From assembly GCA_050303435.1 (NCBI GenBank), contig JBNLBT010000085.1, forward strand, positions 1-14,243: 14,243 nt of DNA. The letters are read 5' to 3'. A program made the position numbers and the translations under genes. This document shows positions 1 to 14,076 of this stretch, piece by piece. The DNA comes from Marinicellaceae bacterium (GTDB lineage: Bacteria > Pseudomonadota > Gammaproteobacteria > Xanthomonadales > Marinicellaceae). Every line of letters starts with the position of its first letter. Positions within the stretch are counted from its first letter, which is position 1. Under the pieces are notes generated by a model. That model was not told the origin of the DNA and made no database searches. It saw only the letters and a list, made by a program, of their open reading frames with translations.

Positions 1-25
1 GCCGATCGTCCGCAAGGAGCAAGCA

Positions 26-379
26 ATGGCCGAAGCGCCGCGCAACTATCCCGATCTGCACGAGCATCTCGCCGCCCTTGAGGAGCGTGGCCTGTTGCGG
101 CGGATCGACCGCCGCATCGACAAGGACGCCGAGACGGCCTACACGGTGAAAGGCGTGTACGAGGCCATTGAACCGCATGACCGACTGGTCTTCAGCTGGG
201 CCTGGCAACGCCCGGAGGCCTACGATTCGCGCGTGGTTGTGGAGTTCTTCGAGCGCGATGGCGGTACCTTGCTGGTGCTGCGCCATCAGCGGCTCAATGC
301 GGACGATGCGGCCGATCACCGTGACGGCTGGGGCATGTGCCTGGGGCAGTTGCACGCTTTGTTGCAAAGAGGCCATTGA
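26..379 (+). CDS. Small SRPBCC/Aha1-like protein, probably a chimera: residues ~8-35 (NYPDLHEHLAALEERGLLRRIDRRIDKD) look like a UbiD-family decarboxylase N-terminus, the rest like the C-terminal half of an SRPBCC (Aha1/polyketide-cyclase-like) domain
   Basis: AAGGAG Shine-Dalgarno sits 6 nt upstream of ATG 26. The C-terminal segment VVVEFFERDGGTLLVLRHQRL...HRDGWGMCLGQLHALL is typical of Aha1-type SRPBCC proteins. At 117 aa the ORF is shorter than a full SRPBCC domain. Confidence 0.5.
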   Translation: MAEAPRNYPDLHEHLAALEERGLLRRIDRRIDKDAETAYTVKGVYEAIEPHDRLVFSWAWQRPEAYDSRVVVEFFERDGGTLLVLRHQRLNADDAADHRDGWGMCLGQLHALLQRGH

Positions 380-453
380 ATGTGCACCGGCGCGTTTGAT
401 TGTCACATGGCCTGTGTATAATGGGCCTATCAATCCAATCCGAGGCTCCGCCC

Positions 454-927
454 ATGACAGTCAAAGCACAACCCGAAGGCTACCTCGCCGTGACCGCCTA
501 CCTGGTGGTCAACAACGCCGCCGAGGCCATCGATTACTACAAGCGCGCCTTCGACGCGGTGGAATTGTTTCGCCTGGAAGCGCCGGGTGGCGGCGTCGGT
601 CACGCCGAAATTCGCATCGGCGATGCGCCGGTGATGTTGGCCGATGCGCATCCCGACATGGGCTTTAATGACCCCGGCGCCTACGGCGACACGCCGGTGA
701 GTCTGATGCTGTACGTCGAGGACGTCGACGCGGTGTTTGCCCGCGCGGTGGAACACGGCGCAGAAATCCTGCGCCCGGTGGTGGATCAGTTCTACGGCGA
801 TCGCACCGGCACCCTCAAAGACCCGTTCGGCCACGTCTGGACGGTGGGCACGCACACGGAGGATTTGACCCCCGAAGAATTGCAACAGCGCGCGGCTGAA
901 ATGTACGCGGAGATGGGCGCGGACTGA
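454..927 (+). CDS. VOC (glyoxalase/bleomycin-resistance/dioxygenase) family protein, PhnB-like
   Basis: MTVKAQPEGYLAVTAYLVVNNAAEAIDYYKRAFDA...HAEIRIGDAPVMLADAHPD...FGHVWTV is a classic PhnB/VOC fold signature. The ATG at 454 is preferred over the track start at 400 because it begins the conserved domain. Confidence 0.7.
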   Translation: MTVKAQPEGYLAVTAYLVVNNAAEAIDYYKRAFDAVELFRLEAPGGGVGHAEIRIGDAPVMLADAHPDMGFNDPGAYGDTPVSLMLYVEDVDAVFARAVEHGAEILRPVVDQFYGDRTGTLKDPFGHVWTVGTHTEDLTPEELQQRAAEMYAEMGAD

Positions 928-929
928 GT

Positions 930-1394
930 TCAGTCGCGCGCCGGCGGCTCGAGTTTTTTCAGAAAACACACGACCCGGTCCACTTCTTCGAAGCCAATTG
1001 CGCGGTGCGCCTGGTGGCTGGTGCGGTTGTCGATTTCGGCGTCGCTGGCCAGTTCGGTCAATCCCTGGGATCGCGCCCAATCTTCAGCCGCGCGCATCAG
1101 CGCCGTGCCGAGACCTGCACGCCGCTGGTCGGGATCAACGTACCAGCCCTCGACGTAGGCCACGTGGGGCGCCACGCTGCCCTCGGCGTAATTGCGCAGA
1201 TTCAGTTCAATGAAGCCGCACAGACCCGCGCCATCCCGTTCGGCCACTCGCACGGCCTGCACGTCGCGGCATTCACCGGCAAAAAACAAGCGGCATTCCT
1301 GCGCGTGGTCCGAATCCGAATCGGGCCACAGCACGCAGCGCATGCGCTGCCATTCATCAAGGTCTTCTTTGCGGATCGGTCGGATGGTGTGCAT
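930..1394 (-). CDS. GNAT-family aminoglycoside 6'-N-acetyltransferase, AAC(6')-I subfamily-like (resembles the Iz/Iy type)
   Basis: Motifs LWPD, GF.E..LR, EGWYVDPDQRRAGLGTALM, ELASDAEIDN and HQAHRAIGFEEVDRVV match AAC(6')-I enzymes as I recall them. AGGAGA RBS lies 7 nt upstream of ATG 1394 on the - strand. Its stop is 2 nt from the stop of the convergent VOC gene. Confidence 0.65.
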   Translation of the reverse strand: MHTIRPIRKEDLDEWQRMRCVLWPDSDSDHAQECRLFFAGECRDVQAVRVAERDGAGLCGFIELNLRNYAEGSVAPHVAYVEGWYVDPDQRRAGLGTALMRAAEDWARSQGLTELASDAEIDNRTSHQAHRAIGFEEVDRVVCFLKKLEPPARD

Positions 1395-1533
1395 GGATGT
1401 TCTCCTCTCAATTTAGGCAATGGCACCGTGATTGGGCCCACCTGTGGTGACATTCGCCGCTTGGCAGGTTTCAGTGTACGGGCGGGTGTCACACTTATAG
1501 ACAATCAATGACAGATAGGTTTCTTTGCAAGGC

Positions 1534-1543
1534 AAAAAAAAAA
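1534..1543. repeat. A10 homopolymer in the divergent intergenic region between aac(6')-like and the hydrolase gene
   Basis: caaggcAAAAAAAAAAcaacaaagg read directly from the sequence. Confidence 0.9.
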
Positions 1544-1563
1544 CAACAAAGGTGTGATCTCTG

Positions 1564-1575
1564 GCGTGGCCACGC
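1564..1575. promoter_or_regulatory. Perfect 12-bp palindrome GCGTGGCCACGC in the divergent promoter region, a candidate transcription-factor site
   Basis: The sequence is identical to its own reverse complement. It lies between divergently oriented genes. Confidence 0.4.
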
Positions 1576-1753
1576 GTTCAGAGGCGGCGTCATTGAACGT
1601 TGAGTCCTTCGTGCGCAGGAATCAATCCCAAAGACGAAGGAACATGGCTGCACTGACCGTTCATGCACCTGCACAACCGCTGGTACAATAACACACCACG
1701 GGAAGCGCCGCCGGTGCGACACTGGCGGCACATTGAAACCGAGGTGATTGAAC

Positions 1754-2632
1754 ATGAACATTTTGAACAGACAACGGGTGCGGGTGATGTGGCTGGCGGT
1801 GCTTTTGGCCGTGGGTGCTGTGCAGGCGCGCGATTTTGAAGTGCAGGTGCACGGCGAAGGTCAGCCGATGCTGCTGATTCCAGGATTGAGCAACCACGCC
1901 GCGGTGTGGGACGAAACCGTGGCTCGCTATCAAGACCGTTACCGCACGCACGCGGTGACCTTGCCGGGATTTGCCGGTGTGGCGCCGATGTCATACGAAG
2001 GCGATTACCTGGACGCGGTGACCGCGCAGTTGCTGGCCTACATCGATGCGCAGAAACTGCACAAGCCGGTCATCGTCGGGCATTCGCTGGGTGGCTACGT
2101 GGCCATGAAACTGGCCATTGCCCGGCCCAAAGCCTTCGACCGGCTGGTGATTGTCGACTCGCTGCCGTTCATGGCCGCCATGCAGGTGCCGACGGCCACC
2201 GAAGAAAGCATCAAACCGATGGCCGAAATGATGCGCAAAAACATGAACTCTAATGATGAGACCGCGCGTGCGGCAAGCCTGGACATGCTGTTGCCGAGCA
2301 TGATCACCGATCCTGAGCGGATCGCGCTGGCCAAACGCTGGGGCATGGATTCCGATCCGCACACGGTGGCGCAGGCCATGTATGAGTTGATGACGCGCGA
2401 TCTGCGCGACGAATTGCAGCAGGTCAAAATCCCGGTGCTGGTCATGGGCGCGTGGATCGCCTATCAGGGCTTTGGCATGACCCGCCAGCGGCTGCTGGAC
2501 AGCTACGGCGCGCAATACGAGGCCTTGGATGACCTGACACTGAAGGCCACCGACAGCGGGCGTCACTTCATCATGTGGGACGACCCTGAATTTTTCTTCA
2601 CCGAAATCGACGCCTTCCTCGCGCGGCCGTGA
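1754..2632 (+). CDS. Secreted or periplasmic alpha/beta-fold hydrolase (esterase/lipase-like), with signal peptide
   Basis: The N-terminus RVRVMWLAVLLAVGAVQA|RD looks like a Sec signal peptide. GHSLGG nucleophile elbow is present. GAGGTG RBS lies 7 nt upstream of ATG 1754; the track's TTG 1748 is a less likely start. The stop overlaps the next gene's GTG start (GTGA). Confidence 0.7.
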   Translation: MNILNRQRVRVMWLAVLLAVGAVQARDFEVQVHGEGQPMLLIPGLSNHAAVWDETVARYQDRYRTHAVTLPGFAGVAPMSYEGDYLDAVTAQLLAYIDAQKLHKPVIVGHSLGGYVAMKLAIARPKAFDRLVIVDSLPFMAAMQVPTATEESIKPMAEMMRKNMNSNDETARAASLDMLLPSMITDPERIALAKRWGMDSDPHTVAQAMYELMTRDLRDELQQVKIPVLVMGAWIAYQGFGMTRQRLLDSYGAQYEALDDLTLKATDSGRHFIMWDDPEFFFTEIDAFLARP

Positions 2633-3699
2633 ATTCCACCGCGCGCAACCACCGCAATTTCTGGCTGCTGAACGCCGCCGGGTGGGCCGTGTACCTGAGC
2701 ATCAGCGGGGTGTTTTTCGCCGCCATGAGCGGACAGATGAACCGCAACACCGCGCTGATCCAGGCACTGGCCTTTGCCTTGCTGGTGCCGGTCACCGGCG
2801 CCCTTCGGGCCCTGATCAAGGCGCGCGGCTGGGTCAACACCCTGGGTCGCCCCGGCGTCATTCTGGGTTTGTTGGGTTTGACGCTGCTGCTCTCGCTGGC
2901 GGTGCAATTCAGCGTGTCGCTGTTCATGATGTATGGCCTGGGGATGATGAACTGGTCGACGTATTCGGTGCCGGTGCTGGCGATGACCGTGGCGCAGACC
3001 TGGTTCATGCTGGTGGCCTGGCTGCTGTTGTATTTTGCCATCATCCACCGGCGCAACGCGCACCGCCAGGCGCTGGAGAAATGGCAGGCCGAAAGCGCTT
3101 TAAAAGCCGCCGAGTTGCACGCCCTGAAAGCGCAGCTGGACCCGCATTTCATCTTCAACTGCCTGAACAATCTGCGCGCGCTGGTGACCGAAGACGTGGA
3201 CCGCACGCGGCAGATGATCACGCATCTGTCGGAAATTCTCAAGTACACCCTGCACCACAACCGTCGGGAAAAAGTCACCCTGGGTGAGGAAATGGATCAC
3301 GTGGCCAACTACCTGGCCCTGCAGTCGCTGCACCTGGAGGCGCGCTTGCAGACTGCTGTGCAGGTGCCGCAGGCTTTGCGCAGCGCGCAGGTGCCGCCGC
3401 TGAGCGTGCAGTTGCTGGTGGAAAACGCCATCAAGCACGGCATCATGCATCGACCCGGCGGCGGTGAGGTGTCGATTGCGGCCAGCGCCGCACACGGTCA
3501 ACTGAGCGTGCAGGTGCGCAACCCCGGGGATTTGCAAAAGCACACCGCCGGCCATGGCATCGGTCTGAACAACCTGCGGGAACGGCTGGCGCTGCTGTGG
3601 CCGCACAACGCCGCATTGCATTTGCGTGAAGAGCGCGGCGCGGTGGTGGCAGATTTGCGGTTGCCACTGGAGACTGAAGGAGAACCCCGGCATGAATGA
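2629..3699 (+). CDS. Membrane sensor histidine kinase of the LytS/YehU (His_kinase PF06580-type) family
   Basis: Four to five N-terminal TM helices. The phospho-acceptor region ELHALKAQLDPHFIFNCLNNLRALV is the His_kinase (LytS-type) motif. An HATPase region (LLVENAIKHG..GHGIGLNNLRERL) is present. The GTG start overlaps the hydrolase stop. Confidence 0.75.
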   Translation: MNSTARNHRNFWLLNAAGWAVYLSISGVFFAAMSGQMNRNTALIQALAFALLVPVTGALRALIKARGWVNTLGRPGVILGLLGLTLLLSLAVQFSVSLFMMYGLGMMNWSTYSVPVLAMTVAQTWFMLVAWLLLYFAIIHRRNAHRQALEKWQAESALKAAELHALKAQLDPHFIFNCLNNLRALVTEDVDRTRQMITHLSEILKYTLHHNRREKVTLGEEMDHVANYLALQSLHLEARLQTAVQVPQALRSAQVPPLSVQLLVENAIKHGIMHRPGGGEVSIAASAAHGQLSVQVRNPGDLQKHTAGHGIGLNNLRERLALLWPHNAALHLREERGAVVADLRLPLETEGEPRHE

Positions 3700-4411
3700 A
3701 CACCCGATCACCGCCCTGGTGGTGGACGACGCGCGGCTGGCGCGCAAAGAACTTTTGCATCTGCTCAAGGCGCAGCCGGAAATCCATGCGCTGGGTGAGG
3801 CCGAATCGGCCGCGCAGGCGCGCGAATTGATCGCCGAACACGCGCCCGATGTGTTGTTTCTCGACATTCAAATGCCGGGAGAGGATGGCTTTGAACTGCT
3901 TGAGTCGCTGGATCACGCGCCGCAGGTGATTTTCACCACCGCCTACGATCAATACGCCATTCGCGCGTTTGAGCACAACGCCCTGGATTACCTGCAGAAA
4001 CCGGTCGATCCGGCGGCGCTGGCGCGGGCCATTAAACGCTTGGCCACGCGCGTGAAACCCGCAGAAGCATCGCGCAACGCGGCCCACCCGCGCCGCGTGT
4101 TTGTCAAGGACGGTGAGGCCTGCTGGTTTGTGCCGGTGGAACGCATCCGCCTGCTGGAAGTGGACGGGCATTACACCACGCTGCATTTCGATGACGCCGC
4201 GCCGATGATCGCCAAGACACTGAATCAACTGGAAAGCCGCCTGGACCCGGCGCTGTTTTTCCGCGCCAACCGCAATCAAATGATCAACCTTCAGCACATC
4301 GAAGACGTGCAGCCATGGGTGCAGGGCGTGCGCGTGCGGCTGAGCGACGGTCGCTGGGTGGAACTGTCACGGCGCCAGAGCCAGGCTTTCCGGGCGCGCA
4401 TGAGCCTGTGA
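3692..4411 (+). CDS. LytTR-family (LytR/AlgR-type) response regulator
   Basis: Receiver domain ALVVDDARLARKEL...VLFLDIQMPGEDGFELL, plus a C-terminal LytTR DNA-binding domain (FVKDGEACWFVPVERIRLLEVDGHYTTLHF...FFRANRNQMINLQHI). The ATG overlaps the kinase stop (ATGA). GAAGGAG RBS is upstream. Confidence 0.8.
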   Translation: MNEHPITALVVDDARLARKELLHLLKAQPEIHALGEAESAAQARELIAEHAPDVLFLDIQMPGEDGFELLESLDHAPQVIFTTAYDQYAIRAFEHNALDYLQKPVDPAALARAIKRLATRVKPAEASRNAAHPRRVFVKDGEACWFVPVERIRLLEVDGHYTTLHFDDAAPMIAKTLNQLESRLDPALFFRANRNQMINLQHIEDVQPWVQGVRVRLSDGRWVELSRRQSQAFRARMSL

Positions 4412-4419
4412 ACGGGCAT

Positions 4420-4472
4420 TTGTTAAAAAAACGTTAAAATTTGCTTGACATGCTTCGAGCGGCGGTTAAAAT
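4420..4472 (+). promoter_or_regulatory. Near-consensus sigma70 promoter (TTGACA-16 nt-TAAAAT) with an A/T-rich UP region and GTTAAAA(T) direct repeats
   Basis: TTGACA at 4445-4450, TAAAAT at 4467-4472. Repeats GTTAAAA at 4421-4427 and 4432-4438, 11 bp apart, and again at 4464-4470 overlapping the -10. Confidence 0.6.
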
Positions 4473-4478
4473 GCGTCG

Positions 4479-4699
4479 CTTATTTGAAATCACACCGCGC
4501 CACAGGCGGCGGTCAACATCAGGAACAACAACGTGAATAAAGGCAGATACAACAATCAGATGATACAGCGGTCACCGCACGCGGTGCTGCCGTTTCATTG
4601 CATGATTTAATGCCTTTCTTCAGCGAAAGGCATGCATGGCCTTTCGCTTCTCTCTGCTTCGCAGGAAACCCCGTCAGGCCACGCCGACGGGGTTTTTTT
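4479..4699 (+). ncRNA. Candidate ~220-nt small RNA or leader transcript, running from the strong promoter to a strong Rho-independent terminator; contains a 25-codon small ORF
   Basis: Bounded by the promoter and the terminator. Internal 9-bp hairpin GCGAAAGGC-ATGCATG-GCCTTTCGC at ~4623-4647. Small ORF GTG 4533..TAA 4610 (MNKGRYNNQMIQRSPHAVLPFHCMI) with AGGAA 8 nt upstream. Confidence 0.35.
4669..4699 (+). terminator. Rho-independent terminator
   Basis: CCCCGTC-aGGCcacGCC-GACGGGG stem followed by TTTTTTTATTTT. Confidence 0.8.
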
Positions 4700-4804
4700 A
4701 TTTTCCTAAACCCCGTTTTAAAGAATTGCTGATCCTCATGGCGTCGTCTCTGTACGGCGACCCGGTGCCCCCGACGCTGTCGGTGTGCATGCCGGATCAG
4801 ACAA

Positions 4805-4878
4805 TGCTGGATAGCTCAGTTGGTTGGAGCAACCCATTCAGATTGGGTCGGTCGAGGGTTCGATTCCCTCTCCAGCTC
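4805..4878 (+). tRNA. tRNA-like gene with a class-I cloverleaf and predicted anticodon CAG at 4839-4841; its isotype is anomalous because a CAG anticodon normally implies a class-II Leu tRNA
   Basis: Manual fold: acceptor TGCTGGA/TCCAGCT (6 bp plus a U1:U72 mismatch); U8 A9; D-arm GCTC-AGTTGGTTG-GAGC (Met-elongator-like); anticodon stem ACCCA/TGGGT with loop TTCAGAT; 5-nt variable loop CGGTC; T-arm GAGGG-TTCGATT-CCCTC; discriminator C; no encoded CCA. Confidence 0.5.
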
Positions 4879-4944
4879 TGAAGCTCAATGGTGGAGCAGG
4901 TGAATTTACTCATCGGGTTGCAGGTTCGATTCCTGTCAGAGCAC
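4874..4944 (+). pseudogene. Second, degenerate tRNA-like cloverleaf that overlaps the 3' end of the first by 5 nt (probable tRNA pseudogene or duplication relic)
   Basis: Acceptor AGCTCTG/CAGAGCA (6 bp plus an A1:A72 mismatch); D-arm GCTC-AATGGTG-GAGC; anticodon stem GGTGA/TCATC with a non-canonical 6-nt loop ATTTAC; T-arm GCAGG-TTCGATT-CCTGT. It repeats the TTCGATTCC T-loop of the first element. Confidence 0.3.
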
Positions 4945-5188
4945 TTCGATCTGTCCTTTTACGACAGATGGCGAAGCCATCAGGAACGCAAGTTCCCATC
5001 CAGTAAAAGACGTGCAAGGGTCTTAAAACATTGCAACCGACCTCGGTGCAGCGGCGCAGGCAGGCGCCATGAATGTCACCCGGACGTGTCGGCACAACGA
5101 CCGCAACGCTTCAATCCATGCAATGGGCATGGTTTCTGTGTGTGGCTCGGCCAATGACGGCTGGCGCGGGTTTGCCCGCGCGCCGTGG

Positions 5189-5255
5189 GGTGTGCAGCGC
5201 TGCGAGACGCAGGGCGTGTGATTCGACAGGGCGGTCGAATCGCAGCGGGCACACC
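5189..5255. repeat. Long imperfect inverted repeat (composite hairpin) in the intergenic region, preceded by the GC hairpin GGCGCGGG-tttg-CCCGCGC (5163-5184)
   Basis: Inner perfect stem GATTCGAC-agggcg-GTCGAATC (5220-5241). Outer arms GGTGTGCAGCGCTGC and GCAGCGGGCACACC are near-complementary. Confidence 0.5.
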
Positions 5256-5521
5256 ACACCCGGCTTGATTCCGAGACTCCCGCGTTGTGGTCGTGAGGCG
5301 GTTTTTTTAATTTGAGATGCAGGCGATCAAAGGGATCGCATGCATCGGGCGTTGGCGGGATGGCCCGCGAACGCTGCAGGCAGGTGGCGTGGAGGTAATC
5401 AATGAGGCGGGCGCGTGCGTTGCATGCGCCCATTTTAGAACGTATTTAAACAATGCAAATTCAATGAGAATAACTTAGCAAAGGCGCCGATGCCAGGCAT
5501 GGGTGCCACAGGAGAAGACCG

Positions 5522-6655
5522 ATGACTATCAGAAAAAGAATCGTGATTGCAGAAAACGAACGCGGCCTGGTGTTTCGAGACCGGCAGTTTGTGGCGTGCC
5601 TGAAACCCGGCGTCGAATATTTTTGGGATCCGCGCAATCGCATCCAGGTGCGGGTGTTTGATGTCACCCGTGCGGAAGTGAACGATGCGAATGTGTTGAA
5701 CTGGCTGAAAGGCCGTGCCGATTTGATTGGCGTGTACTTTGATGAAGTGCGCACCAATGAAAATCAGGTGGCGTTGATTCGCTGCGATGGGCAGTTCATC
5801 GATTTGCTGGCACCGCAGTCGCGCAAAGTGTACTGGTCAGAACCGCTGTGCGTTGAGGCTGAGATCATCGACATCGCCGCGCAACCGCGCATCGATGCGG
5901 CCACCGTGCGCGTGTTGCGCAAAGCCCTGGCCAAAGGCGTGCTGGGGCAGGGCGTGCTGGTCAAGCAGATCAACAGCCAGTGCGTGGGTCTGTTGTCGAT
6001 CGACGGCGTGCACAGCGAAGTGTTGCCGGCTGGGACACACGCCTACTGGCGCTTCAACCGGGCCATCGACATCGTCGAGGTTGACACCCGCGTGCAGAAC
6101 ATGGAAATCAGTGGCCAGGAAATCCTGACGCGCGATAAAGTGTCTCTGCGGGTGAATTTGTCTGCGGCATTTCGCATCAGCGATGCCTTGGCGATGGTGC
6201 AGCAATTGTCCGACAGCAAGGCGTTTTTGTACACCGAATTACAACTGGCTGTGCGCAAAGCCATCGGCGGCAAAAACCTGGACGCCCTGTTGGCGGACAA
6301 ATCAGCAATCGACACTCAGGTGTGTGCCTGGGTGCGCAAGTCTCTGGACGGTCTGGGCTTGCAATTGCTGGATGTGGGCCTGAAAGACGTCATCTTACCC
6401 GGTGACATGAAAGCCATTTTGAATCAGGTGGTGGAGGCGGAAAAAGCCGCCAAAGCCAACGTCATCAAACGGCGTGAGGAAACCGCGGCCACACGCTCTT
6501 TGCTGAACACCGCGAAGTTGATGGACCAGTCCCCGACTTTGCGGCGTCTGAAAGAACTGGAGACTTTGGAAAAAGTCTCTGACAAAGTGGCGTCCATGAC
6601 CGTGTTTGGCGGGATCGAATCCCTGTTGCAGGATGTGATCAAAGTGCGTCAATGA
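5522..6655 (+). CDS. SPFH/band-7 (slipin/stomatin-like) domain protein with a ~190-aa N-terminal extension of unknown function
   Basis: C-terminal half (ISGQEILTRDKVSLRVNLSAAFRI...ILNQVVEAEKAAKANVIKRREETAATR) is a typical SPFH domain with a coiled-coil tail. ACAGGAGAAG RBS is upstream of ATG 5522. No N-terminal TM helix was seen. Confidence 0.7.
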   Translation: MTIRKRIVIAENERGLVFRDRQFVACLKPGVEYFWDPRNRIQVRVFDVTRAEVNDANVLNWLKGRADLIGVYFDEVRTNENQVALIRCDGQFIDLLAPQSRKVYWSEPLCVEAEIIDIAAQPRIDAATVRVLRKALAKGVLGQGVLVKQINSQCVGLLSIDGVHSEVLPAGTHAYWRFNRAIDIVEVDTRVQNMEISGQEILTRDKVSLRVNLSAAFRISDALAMVQQLSDSKAFLYTELQLAVRKAIGGKNLDALLADKSAIDTQVCAWVRKSLDGLGLQLLDVGLKDVILPGDMKAILNQVVEAEKAAKANVIKRREETAATRSLLNTAKLMDQSPTLRRLKELETLEKVSDKVASMTVFGGIESLLQDVIKVRQ

Positions 6656-6660
6656 ATGCA

Positions 6661-6698
6661 GCCCGTACAGGCCTGGCCTGTGCGGGCTGTTTTGTATT
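6661..6698. terminator. Intrinsic terminator between the convergent SPFH and DUF1801 genes, probably bidirectional
   Basis: 11-bp stem GCCCGTACAGG-cctgg-CCTGTGCGGGC followed by TGTTTTGTATT on the + strand. Confidence 0.7.
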
Positions 6699-6725
6699 CA
6701 GCGCATGGATAACTAATGCCGCGGT

Positions 6726-7319
6726 TCAGGACGAGCGGTAGCGGTCATTCAGGCCCAGCCCGGCGCGGATCATCGGGGTGATTTTTTGCAACCGGTTTTG
6801 ACGCGTGTCGGCGCGTTTGGCCTCTGCGATGTACGCACTGTATTCCTTTTGTTTGTAGGGCGTCAGTGCCTTGAAGGCGTCGTTCAGTGTCTTGTCCTGT
6901 GCCAATGCAGCGGCCAGTTCCTCTGCCGGTTTGGCGACTTGTTTCTGCAGGGCAACCACCCGGCCCGCGCGGTGATTTTCTATGCTGGCGGCGATGTAGT
7001 TCTTGAACAGGGCGGCATCCGGAGCGCTGTCCTGTGTGAAGCGCCATTGGCGCATGGCCTGGGTTTTGCCGGGTTGTGCATTGATCAGCACGCCGGCCGG
7101 ATCCTCCAGCAAGGCGCCCTGATGGAACCACACCGCGGCGTGGTGCTTGAACGCCGCCAGGCCGATCAGGTTCTGTCCGTCCAGGGTGTAGGTCGGCGCG
7201 CCCCATTTAATGGTTTCCTGCAAACCCTGTTGCAGCAATTGCGCGCGCAAGGCGTGCAGCTGCGCGCCCCATTCGGGGTGTTTTTGCACATAGGTTTCGA
7301 AGGGATCGGGTGTGTTCAT
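6726..7319 (-). CDS. DUF1801/YdeI-OmpD-associated family protein
   Basis: MNTPDPFETYVQKHPEW...IKWGAPTYTLDGQNLIGLAAFKHHAAVWF resembles the DUF1801 domain, and the C-terminus TPYKQKEYSAYIAEAKRADTRQNRLQKI resembles the YdeI/OmdA tail. Start chosen at ATG 7319 (the MNTPD start) rather than the upstream track start. Confidence 0.6.
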   Translation of the reverse strand: MNTPDPFETYVQKHPEWGAQLHALRAQLLQQGLQETIKWGAPTYTLDGQNLIGLAAFKHHAAVWFHQGALLEDPAGVLINAQPGKTQAMRQWRFTQDSAPDAALFKNYIAASIENHRAGRVVALQKQVAKPAEELAAALAQDKTLNDAFKALTPYKQKEYSAYIAEAKRADTRQNRLQKITPMIRAGLGLNDRYRSS

Positions 7320-7362
7320 GACCGCCCCATGATACGGGATCGCGGGGTGTGTTGCAATTGAC

Positions 7363-7404
7363 AAAAAAACGGCGGCGCGTTTCAGGGCACCTAAACGCAC
7401 CGCC
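7363..7404 (-). terminator. Strong Rho-independent terminator downstream of the beta-helix gene, read on the - strand
   Basis: On the - strand: GGCGGTGCGTTT-aggtgccctg-AAACGCGCCGCC followed by GTTTTTTTG. Confidence 0.75.
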
Positions 7405-7412
7405 CAAAGGCA

Positions 7413-8921
7413 TCAATCGTCGAAATCGTGGGCGTATATGACGTCCGGAATGGACTGTTCAAAGGCGCCGATGTCGCAGCGCGGCAGGCCGTCGGCGTTG
7501 CCGTCCTGAAAGCGGTCTTCGCCGCGTTGGTCGGTGTTCAGGATCAAGCCGGTTTCGTCGCTGCAGCCGGTCGGATCGCCGCCGTCGATCAGCGCGCTGC
7601 CGGCGTTGGGCGCGCGCGTCGGTGTGGGGCCGCCGTTGTCGGTCAGGCCATCCAGCTGTGGGTCAATGGCGCCGCCGGCGCCGCTGTCACCGGACAAGTC
7701 GTTGCCGGCCAGCGTGAGCCCACAGCCGGCCACATCGCCGATGAAATTGTAATCGTCTGAGTTGCCATTGCCGCTGCAATCCGGCCCGGCGCCGCCGTTG
7801 AGTGTTTGATTGTCTGCCAGCACGGTGTTTCTGATCAGCACACCGCTGTTGAAAAACAACCCGCCGCCGCTGCCGCCGACGTCTTCGGCGTTGGCGATGT
7901 TGCGGGTGATGGTGCTGTTGAGGATTGCGGTGAATTCGCCACTGAACGAGCGCAGGTACAGGCCGCCGCCTTCGTTGCCGGCGCGGTTGCCGTCGATGGT
8001 TGAATTGATCACCACGTGGGTGCCGTTGGACGAATAGATGGCGCCGCCGCGCTGCTCTGACGTGTTGTCGGCCAGGGTGGTGTTTTCAATGCGCATGACG
8101 CCGCCTTCCTGGATGTTGAAAATGGCGCCGCCGCGCAGGGCCGATTGATTCAATTCAAACAGCGAGTCGGTGACGCTCAGATTGATCACCGAGCCGATGG
8201 CCTTGCGCAGCGAGATGGCGCCGCCGTTGCCACTGCTTTTGTTGTTGATGAAGAGGCTGCGCAGGATGGTGGCATCGATCTGCCCGGGGCCTTCGCTGCT
8301 GGCGTCCAGATCAATGGCACCGCCGGTGCCATTGGTGACCGCGTTGTTGCTGAATACGCAGTCTTCAATCAGCAGCGTGCGCCCACTCGCGTCGCCTTTG
8401 AACACCACCGCGCCGCCGCCATTGGAGGCGCTGTGAGAGTCGATGAGGCAATTGCGCAGGGTCAGATTGGCCGGCTCATCCATGCGCACTGCGGCGCCGT
8501 AGGCACCGCCGTCCAGCAGCTGCATGTTTTCGACGCGCAGTTCGGCGTCGCTGACGAGAATCGGACTGGTGTCATTGCCTTGCAGGCCGATCTGAGCACC
8601 GACGGGGGCAAGAATTTCCAGCGCTTCGGTGACCGCCGGCAAGCCGTTGACGCTGACGTCAATGACGGCGTTCAGTGGCAGGCCGTCGAACTCAATGACG
8701 TCGCTGCCGACCGCGCCGGCGCCGCATTCTCCGGCACTGCCGCCCGAGGCCGAGTTGTTGTTGGCGGCCAGAATGGCCTCGCGCAGCGTGCATTCGCCGT
8801 CGTTGTCAATCAGTGTGCCGGTGCTGTTGACTGTGATGGTGGCGGCGCGGGCCGTGGCCTGGCACAGACCCAGCGCGAGCAGCGCGATCAAGAGGGCATG
8901 GGTTGCGGTTGTTCTGTTCAT
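7413..8921 (-). CDS. Secreted right-handed parallel beta-helix repeat protein with an N-terminal CSLREA-like motif
   Basis: Signal peptide MNRTTATHALLIALLALGLCQATARA. The motif ECTLREAILAANNN follows the signal peptide. More than ten repeats of the GGA(I/V)/GGGL type (GGGAVVF, GGAIDL, GGAISL, GGAIFN, GGAIYS, GGGLYL, GGGLFF) with N/S-rich turns. C-terminal motif ...PRCDIGAFE. GGAGAGG RBS lies 5 nt upstream of ATG 8921; the upstream in-frame extension in the track is rejected. Confidence 0.7.
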   Translation of the reverse strand: MNRTTATHALLIALLALGLCQATARAATITVNSTGTLIDNDGECTLREAILAANNNSASGGSAGECGAGAVGSDVIEFDGLPLNAVIDVSVNGLPAVTEALEILAPVGAQIGLQGNDTSPILVSDAELRVENMQLLDGGAYGAAVRMDEPANLTLRNCLIDSHSASNGGGAVVFKGDASGRTLLIEDCVFSNNAVTNGTGGAIDLDASSEGPGQIDATILRSLFINNKSSGNGGAISLRKAIGSVINLSVTDSLFELNQSALRGGAIFNIQEGGVMRIENTTLADNTSEQRGGAIYSSNGTHVVINSTIDGNRAGNEGGGLYLRSFSGEFTAILNSTITRNIANAEDVGGSGGGLFFNSGVLIRNTVLADNQTLNGGAGPDCSGNGNSDDYNFIGDVAGCGLTLAGNDLSGDSGAGGAIDPQLDGLTDNGGPTPTRAPNAGSALIDGGDPTGCSDETGLILNTDQRGEDRFQDGNADGLPRCDIGAFEQSIPDVIYAHDFDD

Positions 8922-9030
8922 GGGACCTCTCCCTGTGTTGATACAACCCCTTAAACAAGAAATCGAGTGAATGACGACAGGTCGGGTGAATTTTTTATCT
9001 TCAGACAGGCCGGGCAAGGGCCGTTGCGGT

Positions 9031-11523
9031 TTATTCAGAATCGTTGACTGCCGTCTCGATCGGGGCCATGCGGTGTTGCAGCAGCAGGTCATTGAGCTCC
9101 CTGGAGTTGACCCCGTGCGCGCGCAGTTTGTCCAGCCACGGGTGGGCCTGGTCGATGTGGCCGGTGTGCAGCAGGGCGGTGGCCATGGTCAGTACGTAGT
9201 AAATGCTGTCGGAGGATTTTTCCACCACCGGACGGATCGCTTCAAGCGCCAGCAGCCGCTTGCTGCGCGCGGCGTCGTGCAGGCCCAGTCCGGCGTCGAT
9301 GTTGGCGGCTTGCATCAGGTCCATGCTGTAGTCATTGGCCGCCGAGTCGTTGCCCGGATCCAGGGCCACCAGATCGGCGGATATGGCCAGGCTCTTGCCG
9401 CTGTATTCACGCGCCAGGGGCACGTCGTCGGCGGCCAGCAGGACTTCGGTCATGAGATTGTATGAATAGGCCAGTTCGCGTTTGAAATTGCGGTTTTCCG
9501 GTGACCGCAGGCCCAGGCGTTGCCCCATTTCGATGGCTTTGTCCAGCGCCTCGCGGGCGCCGGCATGATCGTCCTGTTCGAGCAGAAAAAAAGCCATGTT
9601 GTTGTGCAGCACGCGCAGGTTGTTGTGCAAATCAATGCGTGTGTTCTGCAAGTCCACCGCCTGCTCGCCGATGCGCAGCGCGGTGCGCAGGGCATCAAGG
9701 CCCAGCGACAACGTGCCGTAATCCAGCTGATACCAGGCCATCGCCTGGTGCGATTGACTCAGGTATTTGTGCCAGTTGTGCACGTCGTCCGGTTTGCGCT
9801 GCAGGTTGGCTTGACTCAATTCAATCGATTCTTCAATGAAGCGCAGCGCCTGTTCGCCGGAAGCGTTTTCCAGGTGGTGCCAGGCCAGCAGGTTCAGTGT
9901 TTCCCACAAATTAAAGGCGTTGTCCGCCGGGGCCATGGCGCGCGCGTTGGCCAGCGCCGTGTGCAATTCCGCTTCGGCTTCGTCCAGGCGATTCTGCTGC
10001 GTTAATATGGTGCTCAACAAGGCGCCGATTTTGGCCAGTTTGCCCAGACGCAGGGCGCGGTATTCGGGGGCGTCGCGCAGATGATCCAGGCTGGCGCGCC
10101 CGGCCAGCAGCGCCTGTTGCGCGTCCTGGTGCAGTTTCAGATCCATCAGGACGCGGGCGATCTGCACGTAGTTCTGTGCCTTGTGCCAGTGAAATTGCGG
10201 GTCGTCGACGCGGCCTTCGAATTGGCGCAGATGCGCCAGAGACTGTTCGGTGATGTCCAGCAGCAGATCGGTCTTGCCCATGTTGTCGAGTTTTTCATAC
10301 AGGTTTTGCAGCATGAAATTGAGCAGCCCGTCGGAGGCATTGCGGGCCTGCTCGGCGCGGATTTTCTGCTGGCGGATGTCGTGGGTGTATTTCAACGAGA
10401 AGCCGATGGCGGTCGCACACAACAGCAGGGCCACGGCGGTCAGGCCTTTGTGTCGGCGAATGCTCTTGCCCAGCACGTGACCGATGCGGTTGCTCTTCTC
10501 CGCGATCGGCAGGCCATGCATCAGGCTGTACAGGTCGTTTTTCAGGGCCGTGATGCTGGCGTAGCGCCGCTCCACGCGCCGCTGCAGGCACAATTCAATC
10601 ACCCGGTGCACATCGGCGGGCAGCGCGCGGGCAAATTCCTCATCGGCGTGAAACGGGTGGCGCGCCGGCGATTCAGCGCACACATCGGTGAGGGCCTGTT
10701 GCTGCAGGCCTTTGAGCAGCAGGTACAGCATCGCGCCGCAGGCGTAGACGTCCACGCGCGCGTCGATGGCCTGCCCCTGCAGTTGTTCCGGGGCCATGAA
10801 ACCCGGGGTGCCGAACGCGGCATTCACCGGGTGTTCCTGCCAGCGCTGTGGATTGACCGAGATGCCAAAATCGACCAGCACCGGCGTGACGATGCCGTGG
10901 CGGTGTTCCACCAGGATGTTGCCGGGTTTGATGTCCATGTGCACGATGTGGTGCTCGTGGATGTACTCCAGCGCTTCACAGATTTTCAACATCAGCGCCA
11001 GCACTTCGTTGCGTGTGCACGGCTGTGTTTTGACGTGGGCATCCAGTGTCGGGCCGTCGATGTATTCCAGGGCCAGCCACGGCCGCCCGTCCTCGCTGTG
11101 GCCGGCGTCCAGGATGGGCACAATGTACGGGTGGCGCAGGTCCGCCAGAATCTGCATTTCCTGCAGGAACTGCTGGCGGGAAAAATGCTGCCCGCTGTGC
11201 GCGTGCAGAAATTTGATCACCACGGTTTTCTGATACAGACCGTCGGCGCGTTTGGCCAGATAAATCTCGCTTTGACCGCCTTCGGCGATTTTTTCCAGCA
11301 AGCGGTAGCGTTGCAAATCGGCGGCCTGAATGGTTGGGGGTTGGTCAAAAACGTTGTGCAACAATTGGTCCAGTTGCTGGCCGATTTGCGCTTGAATCAG
11401 GGGCCGGTCAGCGGCCATCAGGCCGTCGGCCTTGAGCGCGCGCATCAGTTCTTCGCCGTGCAACTGGGGATTGGATTCGATGAAGGCCTGAATTTTATCC
11501 CAGTCTTCGAACGGCTCACTCAT
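9031..11523 (-). CDS. Membrane Hanks-type serine/threonine protein kinase with a single TM helix and a ~430-aa TPR-like C-terminal (periplasmic) sensor domain
   Basis: Kinase motifs VVIKFL (the ATP lysine), HHIVHMDIKPGNILV (catalytic loop), VDFGIS (DFG) and GTPGFMAPEQ (APE). TM helix LTAVALLLCATAIGFSL. Repetitive helical C-terminus. The start ATG overlaps the sigma stop (ATGA). Confidence 0.8.
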   Translation of the reverse strand: MSEPFEDWDKIQAFIESNPQLHGEELMRALKADGLMAADRPLIQAQIGQQLDQLLHNVFDQPPTIQAADLQRYRLLEKIAEGGQSEIYLAKRADGLYQKTVVIKFLHAHSGQHFSRQQFLQEMQILADLRHPYIVPILDAGHSEDGRPWLALEYIDGPTLDAHVKTQPCTRNEVLALMLKICEALEYIHEHHIVHMDIKPGNILVEHRHGIVTPVLVDFGISVNPQRWQEHPVNAAFGTPGFMAPEQLQGQAIDARVDVYACGAMLYLLLKGLQQQALTDVCAESPARHPFHADEEFARALPADVHRVIELCLQRRVERRYASITALKNDLYSLMHGLPIAEKSNRIGHVLGKSIRRHKGLTAVALLLCATAIGFSLKYTHDIRQQKIRAEQARNASDGLLNFMLQNLYEKLDNMGKTDLLLDITEQSLAHLRQFEGRVDDPQFHWHKAQNYVQIARVLMDLKLHQDAQQALLAGRASLDHLRDAPEYRALRLGKLAKIGALLSTILTQQNRLDEAEAELHTALANARAMAPADNAFNLWETLNLLAWHHLENASGEQALRFIEESIELSQANLQRKPDDVHNWHKYLSQSHQAMAWYQLDYGTLSLGLDALRTALRIGEQAVDLQNTRIDLHNNLRVLHNNMAFFLLEQDDHAGAREALDKAIEMGQRLGLRSPENRNFKRELAYSYNLMTEVLLAADDVPLAREYSGKSLAISADLVALDPGNDSAANDYSMDLMQAANIDAGLGLHDAARSKRLLALEAIRPVVEKSSDSIYYVLTMATALLHTGHIDQAHPWLDKLRAHGVNSRELNDLLLQHRMAPIETAVNDSE

Positions 11524-12065
11524 GTCTGCATGCGGCTGGACAGCATCATCAGCGCGCTGTTCCAGTCGCGGTCGATGGTGCGCACATTGACCGCCAGAAG
11601 TTCGGCTATTTCACGGTTGCTCATGCCGCCGAAAAAGCGGTAGACAAACACCTCTTCCAGCCGCGCCGAGTAGCGACTGAGTCGCTGCAGATTGTCTTCC
11701 AGGTCGATCAGCCAGTCGACCTGATTGTGCAGTCCCGGCGGTTCGGCCGCGTTGTCGGTCACGGTTTGTTCGTTCAGCACCGGTTTCAGGCGCCTGGATT
11801 CGTTGATCAGAATGTGCCGCATCGCCAGCGCCGAAACGGCGAAAAAGTGGTTGCGGTTCTGGTAGGTCTTGTCCTGCTGTTTCATTTTCAGCCAGGCTTC
11901 ATTGACCAGCATGGTGGTGTTGATCTGGTGGTTGTGAATTTTCAGCTTTTGCGATTTGGCAATTTTTTTCAGGTGGGCATACACGCGCTCAAAGTCGTAG
12001 TTTTCGTCCAGTTGAAAACCGACGGTGCGTTTGTTGATCAATCGCGTGATGGGAATGGATTCCAT
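11520..12065 (-). CDS. ECF-type sigma-70 family sigma factor lacking the region-2 DAED acidic motif (NTTM instead); the type associated with a Ser/Thr kinase
   Basis: Region 2 (FERVYAHLKKIAKSQ...INTTMLVNEAWLKM) and a region-4 HTH (GGMSNREIAELLAVNVRTIDRDWNSA) are present. Thr50/Thr51 occupy the positions of the usual D/E residues. It is translationally coupled to the downstream kinase. Confidence 0.7.
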   Translation of the reverse strand: MESIPITRLINKRTVGFQLDENYDFERVYAHLKKIAKSQKLKIHNHQINTTMLVNEAWLKMKQQDKTYQNRNHFFAVSALAMRHILINESRRLKPVLNEQTVTDNAAEPPGLHNQVDWLIDLEDNLQRLSRYSARLEEVFVYRFFGGMSNREIAELLAVNVRTIDRDWNSALMMLSSRMQT

Positions 12066-12099
12066 GAAATGCTGCCCGCTGCTTGTGCCTCTGTTTTGA

Positions 12100-12148
12100 A
12101 CTATAGCACAAATCCTGCGCCGAAAAACAGATTGACATGAGGGTCAAT
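12100..12148 (-). promoter_or_regulatory. Putative promoter of the sigma gene (extended -10 TGcTATAGT on the - strand) with an upstream palindrome ATTGAC-N6-GTCAAT
   Basis: On the - strand, ...TGTGCTATAGTtcaaaacagaggcac...ATG. The palindrome sits at + strand 12131-12148. No convincing -35 was found. Confidence 0.35.
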
Positions 12149-12222
12149 GGGTGGGCGCGAAAATTTGTGAGGCACGCCTCAATTTCCGCAGGCAATGCAC
12201 AACAAGCGATCTCGGCCTGCGG

Positions 12223-14076
12223 TCAATACAGCCGTTCTCCGGCCGCTTTGATATCCTGGCCGACGTCACCCAGTGAATCGATGTCGACCAGTATGAAGTG
12301 CCCGTCAAAATCAATGCCGTGATCTTCGGGTACCGCCTGATCGATGTCGCTGTCAGCTTGCATCAAACACAAGAGAATCACAAACGGCACGTCCGCCGGC
12401 TGTTTCAATTGTTTGCTGGCCAGCCAAACCTTGCGGATGGATTGCAATTTTTGCAGAGAGGCGCGCAATCGCGCTTTGGCCGCGTCACTGATCTCGGCCG
12501 GCAAAAAAACCGAATTTTCATTCAGATCGTGCATGTCTCGATACAAAGCCTGATGCCGGTCGTGCTGTGCTTCCAGCTTGCGCAAGACGGTTTCAGCTTT
12601 TGCCGTTTCGCCGCGCAGCAGGTGGTGGCGGTACAAGTCTTCACCGGCCTGTTGCAGGGGGTGCGGACTGTGCAGCACACGCATCAACAGCGCCTCGCCG
12701 CGTTCCGGTGCATCCTGCAGCAAACTGGACCCCAGGTAATACATGGCAAAGGTGTTGTCTGGCTCAATGGCCAGCATGGCTTCAAGGGTGGGCCGTGCGT
12801 GCTGAGCACCGTGCAGATTGATTTCAATTTCAGCCCGTTCTCCCAGGCTGTCCATATCGTCTGCCGGATTGGCGTTGAGTTCCGCCAGACGGGCCCGGGC
12901 GCTTTGCGCGTATTGGTGCACTTCCTGCCAGCCTTTTTGGTTTTCTTCAGCCCATTGCCGGTCAAAGTAGTCCAGACAATCGTCCAGTGAGTCCGACAGC
13001 CAGACGAGAGCCGCACTGGGTTCATTCAATGGGCGCCAGACCGGCTCAACCCGCAAGGCCTGAAGCCGGTCCTTCAGTGCAGGGTGCGTGTCGCTGTAGC
13101 CGGTGGCCAAATTCAAGGCTTGTTGCAATGCCAGCTCGGCCTGAGCTGTGTCCAGCGAATGTGAGGCCAGGTGCTGCACCAGTTCATGGCCCACACGGCG
13201 ATTGATTTCAGCGTGCGTCTGCGCGGTCTTTTTCAAGGGTTGCCAGAACGTCTCATCGACAAAATGGCTGTGCAGTTCCGTCACAATCAATGCGACTCCC
13301 AGGTCTTCGGCGGACGTCAGCTGGGCAGCCACTGCGTCGGCTTCGAATTCATTGGCGCGCGCGAGCACAAATGAATACGCATTGAAATGCGGTGCGTAGC
13401 GATTAAAAAACGCACCCAGTAACCAGCGGGCAGACCCGTTGCTTTGATTGACCGCGTGCATGATGCGCATCCAGGTCATTCGCAGTCGGTAGACCCATGC
13501 ATTGAACTTGGCGTGGTCACCGCGCAAGTGCCCCATTTCATGCGCCACCACGGCCAATGCCTGTTGCGGATTCAGGCTGGCCAGCAACTGAACCCCCAGA
13601 ATAAGGGTGTTTCTGTGCCAGCCGAAAATGCCCAGGCGCGGCAGCTGCTGGATGGCCGCATTCATCTCGAAATTCAGCTTGACCTGGTGGATCGGCGGGG
13701 TGTGCAGGCGCCAGGCCATTTCATCGAGGTGCTCAAACAGACGGGGTGCCTGTTGACGTTGGATGATCCGGCCGGGCAGGCCCTCGAAGCGGATCATCAG
13801 GGAGCGTCCGATGACCACAATCAGGGCAACGATGAGCAGGATGAATTTACTTTTAATCAACAAAAGCAAAAATCCGTGACTGAAGATGACCAGCAATGCG
13901 GTGCCTGCGAACAGGCCCAAGGCCAGTGAAAAAAGCACAAACAGATAAGCGTAACCCAGCCAGGCAAGCCATTTCAGGCGGCGCTTGTAGGCCGCCGGGT
14001 TGCGTTCATAAACAGCGCGTGCACGCGCGGCCGTGCGCTCAAATTCTTCGCGCAGTTGGGTGCTGGATTTTGTCAT
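12223..14076 (-). CDS. Membrane-anchored M48-family zinc metallopeptidase (HEXXH) with a TPR-like C-terminal domain
   Basis: N-terminal hydrophobic helices (WLAWLGYAYLFVLFSLALGLFAGTALLVIF and FLLLLIKSKFILLIVALIVVIG). Zinc-binding motif VVAHEMGHLRGDH plus a downstream NEFEAD (a candidate third zinc ligand). Long helical C-terminus with TPR-like repeats. Confidence 0.7.
   Translation of the reverse strand: MTKSSTQLREEFERTAARARAVYERNPAAYKRRLKWLAWLGYAYLFVLFSLALGLFAGTALLVIFSHGFLLLLIKSKFILLIVALIVVIGRSLMIRFEGLPGRIIQRQQAPRLFEHLDEMAWRLHTPPIHQVKLNFEMNAAIQQLPRLGIFGWHRNTLILGVQLLASLNPQQALAVVAHEMGHLRGDHAKFNAWVYRLRMTWMRIMHAVNQSNGSARWLLGAFFNRYAPHFNAYSFVLARANEFEADAVAAQLTSAEDLGVALIVTELHSHFVDETFWQPLKKTAQTHAEINRRVGHELVQHLASHSLDTAQAELALQQALNLATGYSDTHPALKDRLQALRVEPVWRPLNEPSAALVWLSDSLDDCLDYFDRQWAEENQKGWQEVHQYAQSARARLAELNANPADDMDSLGERAEIEINLHGAQHARPTLEAMLAIEPDNTFAMYYLGSSLLQDAPERGEALLMRVLHSPHPLQQAGEDLYRHHLLRGETAKAETVLRKLEAQHDRHQALYRDMHDLNENSVFLPAEISDAAKARLRASLQKLQSIRKVWLASKQLKQPADVPFVILLCLMQADSDIDQAVPEDHGIDFDGHFILVDIDSLGDVGQDIKAAGERLY

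Follow-up and report, generated by a model that had tools for sequence, protein, structure and literature searches.

A conserved leader, proposed to be a five-segment, ribosome-dependent attenuator, precedes tRNA-like and slipin genes in a Marinicellaceae bacterium

We analysed a 14,243-nt stretch of DNA from a Marinicellaceae bacterium (GenBank assembly GCA_050303435.1, contig JBNLBT010000085.1, positions 1 to 14,243 of the forward strand; hereafter the window), and within it the region at 4412-4700. This region carries a strong promoter, a short structured RNA with a small open reading frame (sORF) and an intrinsic terminator. Downstream, on the same strand, lie a structured block, two tRNA-like genes and a gene for a slipin, a Band-7 (SPFH) protein. 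We lean, if only modestly, towards reading 4412-4700 as the promoter and leader of this conserved tRNA-like RNA/slipin locus, with the leader acting as a five-segment ribosome-dependent transcription attenuator. The parts of the leader region, all on the plus strand, are the following:

4422-4439, plus strand: two GTTAA(AA) direct repeats (11 bp apart) that cover about -58 to -41; A/T-rich and UP-element-like
4445-4450, plus strand: -35 hexamer TTGACA, which is TTGAC(A/T) in 11 aligned loci
4467-4472, plus strand: -10 hexamer TAAAAT after a 16-bp spacer, followed by the GC-rich discriminator GCGTCGC; a third repeat (4465-4471) overlaps it
4479, plus strand: predicted transcription start, about 7 nt past the -10 hexamer
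4494-4513, plus strand: 5' hairpin H1 (ACCGCGCC-ACA-GGCGGCGGT)
4521-4525, plus strand: Shine-Dalgarno-like AGGAA, 7 nt ahead of the start codon
4533-4610, plus strand: leader sORF of 25 codons (MNKGRYNNQMIQRSPHAVLPFHCMI), GTG start and TAA stop; homologous ORF in all 17 loci
4566-4592, plus strand: hairpin H2, within the distal sORF; present in all lineages with differing sequences, dG (folding free energy) -13 to -33
4610-4618, plus strand: arm A (AUGCCUUUC), which starts inside the stop codon
4623-4633, plus strand: arm B (GCGAAAGGCAU), which pairs with A or with C
4634-4647, plus strand: B:C loop and arm C (GCAUG GCCUUUCGC), predicted to pair with B or, as anti-terminator strand, with 4672-4684
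4666-4699, plus strand: intrinsic terminator, with 5' arm 4666-4675, loop 4676-4685, 3' arm 4686-4695 and a U-run to 4699

The leader unit, made up of the promoter, an sORF of 25-39 codons, a three-segment hairpin element and the terminator, was found in 17 loci from at least seven lineages: the window, Marinicella, group A, a Competibacter-like lineage and those of loci L082, L086 and L109 (L numbers designate individual loci). In all 17, one or two tRNA-like genes and a Band-7/slipin gene follow it downstream on its own strand, and nhmmer comparisons against loci of 3 kb to 12.7 kb gave E-values of 1e-19 to 1e-61. Four Marinicella genomes carry the whole unit, with promoter, sORF, hairpins, terminator, the second conserved block, two tRNA-like genes and the Band-7 gene, and L107, L110, L085, L082, L086 and L109 keep the same architecture with very different primary sequence. 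Marinicella loci were reached via the LytTR protein encoded beside the window leader, one genome per species, and the others via the Band-7/slipin protein (20 metagenome loci and the contigs of ten slipin homologues); leaders were recognised with a profile in L101-L105 and by reading the sequence in L107, L110, L085, L082, L086 and L109. Slipin homologues number more than 7,000, under the NCBI name 'slipin family protein', and the nearest is only 58% identical to the window protein. Among the 20 metagenome Band-7 loci, 16 were scanned for tRNA or tRNA-like genes; 11 of these have one or more, and in 10 one precedes the Band-7 gene. The anatomy reported in a first-pass annotation of this DNA, a strong promoter followed by a structured, terminated ~220-nt RNA with a small ORF, is thus present and kept across the 17 loci, ORF and structure alike. 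Its components also held: the near-consensus TTGACA-N16-TAAAAT promoter (11 of 12 consensus positions), the 25-codon ORF at 4533-4610 with AGGAA 7 nt ahead of its GTG, the 9-bp hairpin with an ATGCATG loop (4623-4647) and the intrinsic terminator (4666-4699), which an automated scan had missed solely owing to its 10-nt loop.

Rfam searches at gathering and at permissive thresholds left the leader without a match, the only matches being those of the tRNA model at 4805-4878; weak scores over 4620-4704 (at most 25 bits, versus thresholds of 39-93) covered the 3' hairpin-terminator part only and neither the sORF nor the 5' half. A plasmid BLAST search with 4412-4800 also gave no match. The leader is an unannotated RNA/sORF family that is real and conserved. 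Each single feature, be it a short ORF, a hairpin or an A/T-rich stretch, can arise randomly in a 290-nt intergenic region, so a spurious ORF and hairpins might have come to lie near a terminator by chance and without function. We give this explanation next to no weight, as the features are conserved jointly over at least seven lineages of very different GC content, with the E-values above, the pairings covary and the ORF is maintained.

The promoter at 4445-4472 is the sole sigma-70-like site that a scan found on the plus strand between 4000 and 5600, and its counterparts in the 11 alignable loci have the form TTGAC(A/T)-N15-17-TAnAAT. The GC-rich discriminator is shared by the window and Marinicella. 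Upstream, the A/T-rich element at about -58 to -41 occupies what we take to be the UP-element position, and by general promoter knowledge the combination of a UP-like element, a 16-bp spacer and a GC-rich discriminator resembles, in our reading, the promoters of stable RNAs. GTTAAAA occurs exactly three times in the 14.2-kb window, as the first-pass annotation had counted, at coordinates 1 nt higher than it gave (4422, 4433 and 4465, instead of 4421, 4432 and 4464); 0.44 occurrences are expected, and 1 of 200 shuffles reaches three. The annotation had placed all three copies around the promoter as repeats of one kind; the two upstream copies are conserved, whereas the third is the -10 region itself, which other loci do not conserve as a repeat. 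GTTAA-N6-GTTAA-N7-TTGAC is shared by the window, five Marinicella loci and, within group A, L081, L102 and L105; four other lineages lack this arrangement. A dedicated DNA-binding protein may act at these copies, given that each GTTAA keeps its G.

Downstream of the promoter, the sORF is short, promoter-proximal and maintained, as is the leader ORF of an attenuator. A homologous ORF of 25-39 codons stands open at the same place in 17 of 17 loci, while the other frames carry 0-5 stops each, with at least one between them in every locus; the chance of its staying open, as a product over eight lineage representatives, is about 10^-5.5. Sixteen loci start the ORF with ATG and one with GTG, L003 shows a stop-to-stop change (TAA to TGA), and L021 has an in-frame insertion of 12 nt. 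In L107, L110 and L082 the sORF is probably leaderless, since its ATG lies only 9-10 nt past the -10 hexamer. In its 5' part the sORF is A/U-rich, unstructured and conserved, and it contains no run of a single codon. An N-terminal N-[YH]-F-N-like motif and a Cys are common to the peptides. Representative peptides are:

Window: MNKGRYNNQMIQRSPHAVLPFHCMI
Marinicella (L001): MNLNYFNIKTQATCPSHDSNVLRGMQLI
Group A (L104): MKKHYFYNLSTSSRLKMLGNLPCSHQPQTVMN
Competibacter-like (L107): MNKSYRNFNLLSAIGRPQSAARPCALTIDRMQT
L109: MFLNHFNHIKRNQPTHCACAMSFMEYYLVN

No NCBIfam model matched the leader peptides, and an exact look-up of 10 of them in a collection of 15 billion proteins found none present.

The predicted 222-nt RNA folds at -85.7 kcal/mol (z = -6.5 versus shuffles). 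Hairpins of different sequence occupy the position of H1 in Marinicella (GGTC-TTCG-GACC) and group A (GAGG-N6-CCTC). By analogy with the trp leader, H2 is a candidate RNA-polymerase pause hairpin, which would hold the polymerase until the ribosome arrives. The 9-bp hairpin at 4623-4647 (GCGAAAGGC/ATGCATG/GCCTTTCGC) is one of two alternative pairings of segment B, the other being with arm A. Across the lineages the arms are unrelated (for example GCCUUUC/GAAAGGC, GACCU..CGAG/CUCGGAAGGUC, GCUCUUCC/GGGAGAGC and GUCUUC/GAAGAC), and the stop codon of the sORF abuts or overlaps arm A in 17 of 17 loci despite these differing A, B and C sequences. Pairing energies range from -8.6 to -19.6 kcal/mol for A:B and from -10.2 to -28.4 kcal/mol for B:C. 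The lineages are too divergent for one automatic alignment, and the evidence is therefore given lineage by lineage and not from a single covariance model; pairs were counted on an alignment of 11 sequences for A:B, B:C and the terminator. There, 97.7% of cells are paired for A:B and 100% for B:C; G-U pairs point to constraint at the RNA level, and the terminator, which stands between the leader ORF and the downstream genes, has five pairs with compensatory changes.

Four further candidate elements in this region were rejected. B:C followed by a U-rich tract, flagged in L081 and L021 as a regulated terminator, was dropped because other lineages do not conserve the tract; GGA motifs of the CsrA type, considered for the B:C loop, are not kept in the window or L107; a second ORF that begins in the B:C loop is not conserved either; and relatives do not conserve the long-range pairing that joins arm A to the start region of the sORF in the minimum-energy fold of the window.

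The pairings A:B and B:C are mutually exclusive, and which of them forms would bear on the terminator. Nascent RNAs were folded from the sORF stop codon to just short of the terminator 3' arm, with a ribosome mimicked by masking the stop codon and the next 12 nt (15 nt in total). When arm A is left free, 15 of 17 loci have a minimum-energy fold that combines A:B with an anti-terminator helix, formed by the B:C loop and arm C with the terminator loop and 5' arm. When the stop codon and 12 nt are masked, B:C and a free terminator 5' arm are predicted instead in 14 loci (window, Marinicella, group A, L082, L086 and L109), so that in silico a mask at the stop codon, where arm A begins, switches the predicted fold. 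For the window the two folds have -31.7 kcal/mol (A free) and -21.4 kcal/mol (A masked). L085 conforms with A free; with A masked, B:C forms and the prediction retains some terminator-region pairs. Enforcing A:B brings out the anti-terminator helix in L107 and L110. The pairs of this helix in the window are 4634-35:4683-84, UGGCCU 4637-42:AGGCCA 4676-81 and 4645-46:4672-73. The complementarity is above chance (z = -1.9 to -4.9; 0-12 of 300 shuffles equal it, L107 and L110 being left out as rows without meaning in this test), the helix is paired in 79% of alignment cells versus 23-46% in slid controls, and two of its pairs show compensatory changes. By eye, direct pairing of arm C with the terminator 5' arm is weak, and the anti-terminator is clear only in the nascent folds, because the B:C loop and the terminator loop also take part. 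In L109, L082, L086 and L085 the helix engages arm C and the core of the terminator 5' arm, and the modelled states are there truly exclusive; more generally, anti-terminator and terminator exclude each other in the predicted nascent folds of all lineages.

What the leader precedes, in the window, is the following series of plus-strand features:

4743-4801, plus strand: conserved structured block directly 5' of the tRNA-like genes
4805-4878, plus strand: tRNA-like gene 1 (Rfam tRNA model, 58 bits), with anticodon CAG, short variable arm, U1-C72 mismatch and no CCA
4875-4942, plus strand: tRNA-like gene 2, read from the sequence; degenerate, with a 6-nt anticodon loop and a 4-nt overlap with gene 1
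4943-5308, plus strand: ORF-poor stretch, ending in a conserved CCAC..GTGGTCGTGAG motif, a hairpin and T7 (5280-5308)
5522-6655, plus strand: Band-7/SPFH slipin gene, 377 amino acids, with a stomatin-type SPFH domain and no predicted membrane segment

The structured block has covarying hairpins (CCGAC/GTCGG, CCAGC/GCTGG and CCAGT/ATTGG) and probably comes first among the downstream elements under regulation. The leaderless, Bacteroidota-like loci L088, L090, L098 and L100 have this block too, with a promoter directly before it, and because of this the tRNA-like RNA seems to have a conserved 5' extension. Judged by their sequences, tRNA-like genes 1 and 2 are not ordinary tRNAs: gene 1 because of its short variable arm, U1-C72 mismatch, missing CCA and anticodons that shift among orthologues (UUG and UAG; Gln, Leu, Lys, Met and others). 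In the Marinicella counterparts of gene 2, the Rfam tRNA model is matched at positions 4-67 only. An Rfam match to YrlA (Y-RNA-like) at 4829-4924, with 27.6 bits versus a threshold of 69, does not denote a Y RNA; it arises because the T-arm of tRNA-like gene 1 adjoins the D-arm of tRNA-like gene 2. The ORF-poor stretch has a counterpart in L081 (3600-3925). The regulated product may be a single non-coding RNA with tRNA-like domains, about 0.57 kb in size (0.5-0.6 kb) and longer in Marinicella.

The slipin protein gave no match in PADLOC. Its gene may lie outside leader control, with a 5' region of its own. Just ahead of the slipin start, group A loci have a highly conserved region, GAGGTTTAAATGACTGAGTT... 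with a GCAAACAT/ATGTTTGC hairpin beside AGGAG (L081 3925-4000, with counterparts in L101-L105; about 5480-5521 in the window), which could be the slipin gene's own promoter or a 5' untranslated element. In several group A loci the slipin gene is closely followed by a tRNA-Gln(UUG) gene of normal appearance (L081 5189-5263, L101 4692-4766, L102 4923-4998). L086 seems to hold two tandem terminator-bearing leader-like segments at 262-790, followed by three ordinary-looking tRNA genes, and a fourth, odd tRNA-like gene precedes its slipin gene. In L108 (Thiodiazotropha), no leader was recognised where one would be expected; a long inverted repeat, resembling a small mobile element, lies at 1930-2070, just upstream of the first tRNA-like gene. 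Elsewhere in the window, the minus strand at 9031-14076 carries a cluster of genes for a Ser/Thr kinase with TPR repeats (830 amino acids), an ECF sigma factor and an M48 peptidase. PADLOC PD-T4-6 kinase models match the Ser/Thr kinase (E = 5e-55), which may reflect a generic kinase domain only.

As a five-segment attenuator, the leader would work through the position of the leading ribosome. The strong promoter would start an RNA that encodes the 25-codon peptide and whose stop codon runs straight into arm A. A ribosome at that stop codon would cover A, so that B pairs with C, the terminator 5' arm stays free and transcription ends at about 4699 with a ~220-nt RNA. Were the end of the sORF not reached in time, through absent initiation, stalling or lost coupling, A:B would form once both segments had been made, and the B:C loop and arm C would pair with the terminator loop and 5' arm as an anti-terminator. 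Transcription would then run past the terminator to take in the structured block and both tRNA-like genes, perhaps also the slipin gene, and the net effect would be a downstream RNA switched on by impaired translation. Sequence comparison and folding show that the parts are conserved, the ORF is kept up, the stop codon adjoins arm A and the pairings exclude each other; translation of the sORF, a fold set by the ribosome's position, a resulting change in terminator readthrough and the sensing of a signal are what we infer.

Several points weigh against this mechanism. The support for it is computational throughout. In most relatives the sORF is leaderless or follows an A-rich leader that lacks a Shine-Dalgarno sequence. 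The peptide is weakly constrained within group A (codon-position differences 66/71/89; 26 synonymous versus 131 non-synonymous codon differences), and L004 and L103 have a 1-nt frameshift close to its C-terminus. In L107 and L110, B:C is so stable that the equilibrium fold fails to switch. The window helix takes up the whole terminator loop but only 2 nt of the 10-bp stem, and may there be a pseudoknot alongside an intact terminator; both covarying anti-terminator pairs could equally well belong to a contact in which the B:C hairpin meets the terminator hairpin loop to loop. Finally, a terminator-like site precedes the slipin gene.

The main rival explanation is a stand-alone gene, in which the constitutively terminated ~220-nt RNA is a small-protein mRNA, a trans-acting small RNA or both, and the tRNA-like RNA has a promoter of its own. 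The hairpins would then be structural, including a kissing contact between the B:C loop and the terminator loop with which the covarying pairs are compatible, and the linkage of leader and tRNA-like genes would reflect a shared function and not control in cis. The strong, conserved terminator, the mostly greater stability of B:C over A:B, the conserved, unstructured A/U-rich 5' part of the sORF, which resembles a small-RNA seed, and the shared N-terminal motif and Cys of the peptides all speak for such a gene. It leaves unexplained, however, why the stop codon abuts arm A in 17 of 17 loci with unrelated arms, as well as the predicted pairing, in L109, L082, L086 and L085, between arm C with its tail and the core of the terminator 5' arm. 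Nor was a conserved promoter seen between the terminator and the structured block, where the spacer is short, variable and unconserved: on the same strand between leader and slipin gene, crude scans of the window and L107 found no other sigma-70-like promoter, extra promoter hits in L081 and L021 stayed at chance level, and weak or non-sigma-70 promoters would escape such scans, which tells in turn against the attenuator. The peptide, moreover, is poorly constrained and belongs to no known family. We regard a stand-alone gene as a possibility of the second rank, to be kept in mind but doubtful.

The first-pass annotation had proposed another explanation, in which LytS/LytTR, by binding at the GTTAAAA repeats, switches on a gene for an effector RNA or peptide in the way that AgrA controls RNAIII. 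The genes concerned, found by domain scan, are:

2629-3699: PF06580-type histidine kinase gene
3692-4411: LytTR response regulator gene (Response_reg and LytTR domains), which ends 10 nt before the repeats

Together with an alpha/beta-hydrolase gene they span 1748-4411 of the window with overlapping ends, and the hydrolase-kinase-LytTR operon is conserved in Marinicella (L001, L003, L004 and L021, at about 4100-6700). The 10-nt distance invites the idea of direct regulation, as do the over-representation and clustering of GTTAAAA, the similarity of GTTAA to the GTT core of the LytTR consensus, and the presence of the LytTR operon a few kb from the leader unit in four Marinicella genomes, the closest relatives of the window LytTR protein (59-64% identity, one genome per species). 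Neither order nor orientation is maintained there, however: the leader unit lies about 3.5 kb from the LytTR gene, in opposite orientation, on the other side of the operon and with unrelated genes between. These loci, moreover, were fetched via LytTR and are a biased sample of proximity to it. In the nine loci reached via the slipin gene that had enough upstream sequence (all of the ten homologue contigs except L106), the promoter-leader unit is shared and no LytTR or histidine kinase gene occurs within 3-3.5 kb. The LytTR gene directly adjoins the leader unit in the window only; the unit accompanies tRNA-like and slipin genes, not LytTR.

The repeats themselves fit no better. LytTR sites are 9-bp repeats about 21-22 bp apart; in the AgrA, BtsR and YpdB sites, paired 9-bp direct repeats about 12-13 bp apart lie upstream of a sub-optimal, activator-dependent promoter. 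The copies in the window are 5-7 bp long and 11 bp apart from start to start, not ~21 bp, at -58 to -41; the third is the -10 hexamer; the near-consensus promoter should need no activator; and no GTTAA-like repeat pair was found upstream of or near LytTR operons. The likeness to agr P3/RNAIII under AgrA comes down to a LytTR regulator gene beside a structured, peptide-encoding RNA. The co-occurrence is not conserved for the window element, its repeat spacing and promoter quality do not suit an AgrA-type activated promoter, and its RNA is read here as a cis leader of a downstream non-coding RNA, not as a stand-alone regulator. LytTR control of the leader is accordingly very unlikely in our estimate.

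If the leader does respond to impaired translation, its first codons might indicate to which kind. Among codons 2-10, 3-4 are NAY codons (Asn/Tyr/His/Asp) in 11 of 13 loci, versus a share of 11-17% in slipin genes, a weak signal from loci that are not independent; more broadly, the first sORF codons are enriched in Asn/Tyr/His (NAY) and Lys/Gln codons. Such codons are read by queuosine-family tRNAs and by targets of anticodon nucleases (colicin E5, PrrC). The enrichment weakly suggests a link to particular tRNAs. One could imagine that the peptide serves specifically to sense when particular tRNAs are damaged or scarce, as a self-contained 'translation-damage alarm' wired to a tRNA mimic: cleaved or unmodified tRNAs would cause an early stall in the sORF, arm A would stay free and the anti-terminator would form, and the induced output would be a ~0.5-kb non-coding RNA with tRNA-like domains together with the slipin scaffold. 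We hold this extension of the attenuator to be improbable.

In ribosome-mediated attenuators that sense translation stress, such as bmrB-bmrCD, the hflXr leader, the msrD leader and toiL, a ribosome stalled within the upstream ORF masks a hairpin arm. Here, by contrast, a ribosome at the stop codon is proposed to mask arm A, and its absence to lead to readthrough. The likeness to these systems (PMC4191407, PMC6310831, PMC10314930 and PMC12121999, respectively) lies in a short upstream ORF that reports impaired translation and relieves premature termination, as predicted here; they differ in that resistance or toxin genes are controlled, as shown experimentally, whereas the target here is a predicted one, a non-coding RNA. 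With the amino-acid operon attenuators trpL, hisL and pheL (PMC1183508, PMC3082878) the leader shares a short ORF close to the promoter, a terminator ahead of the regulated genes, a series of hairpins that exclude one another and among which the position of the leading ribosome is proposed to set the choice, and a structured leader segment that could pause RNA polymerase. It has five segments instead of four, and an untranslated leader is therefore predicted to read through and not to terminate. The window sORF also lacks a run of one regulatory codon, and the target is a non-coding RNA with tRNA-like domains, perhaps with the slipin gene, instead of biosynthetic enzymes. Rfam and NCBIfam searches returned no sequence homology of the leader to any known leader.

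The downstream genes resemble a system already predicted. Burroughs and Aravind (2016), as cited in bioRxiv 10.1101/312249, predicted b7a-tRNA, a tRNA-like gene beside a Band-7 gene, and according to that preprint the system had not yet been validated experimentally as of 2018. Same-strand tRNA-like and Band-7 genes occur in the window and about 25 related loci, and by sequence the window tRNA-like genes fit the predicted b7a-tRNA as the preprint outlines it. The RtcB ligase that belongs to the b7a neighbourhood was absent from the 10 large window ORFs scanned and from the gene tables of the homologue contigs. A leader, a 5' structured block and a long 3' extension are not mentioned in the description given by that preprint.

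Altogether, we consider it somewhat probable that the leader founds a new family of leader-peptide attenuators heading the b7a tRNA-like RNA/slipin locus, and it offers a concrete regulatory input for that locus. Cultured Marinicella strains carry the leader, among them M. sediminis F2, M. meishanensis NBU2979 and M. marina-like strains, which makes experiments possible. If the attenuator holds true, it would be unusual in controlling a non-coding RNA rather than enzymes, and in a five-segment logic whose untranslated default is ON. The tRNA-like RNA would then be made when translation of the short ORF fails, which would link the locus to translation stress and would fit the RNA-repair role proposed for it.

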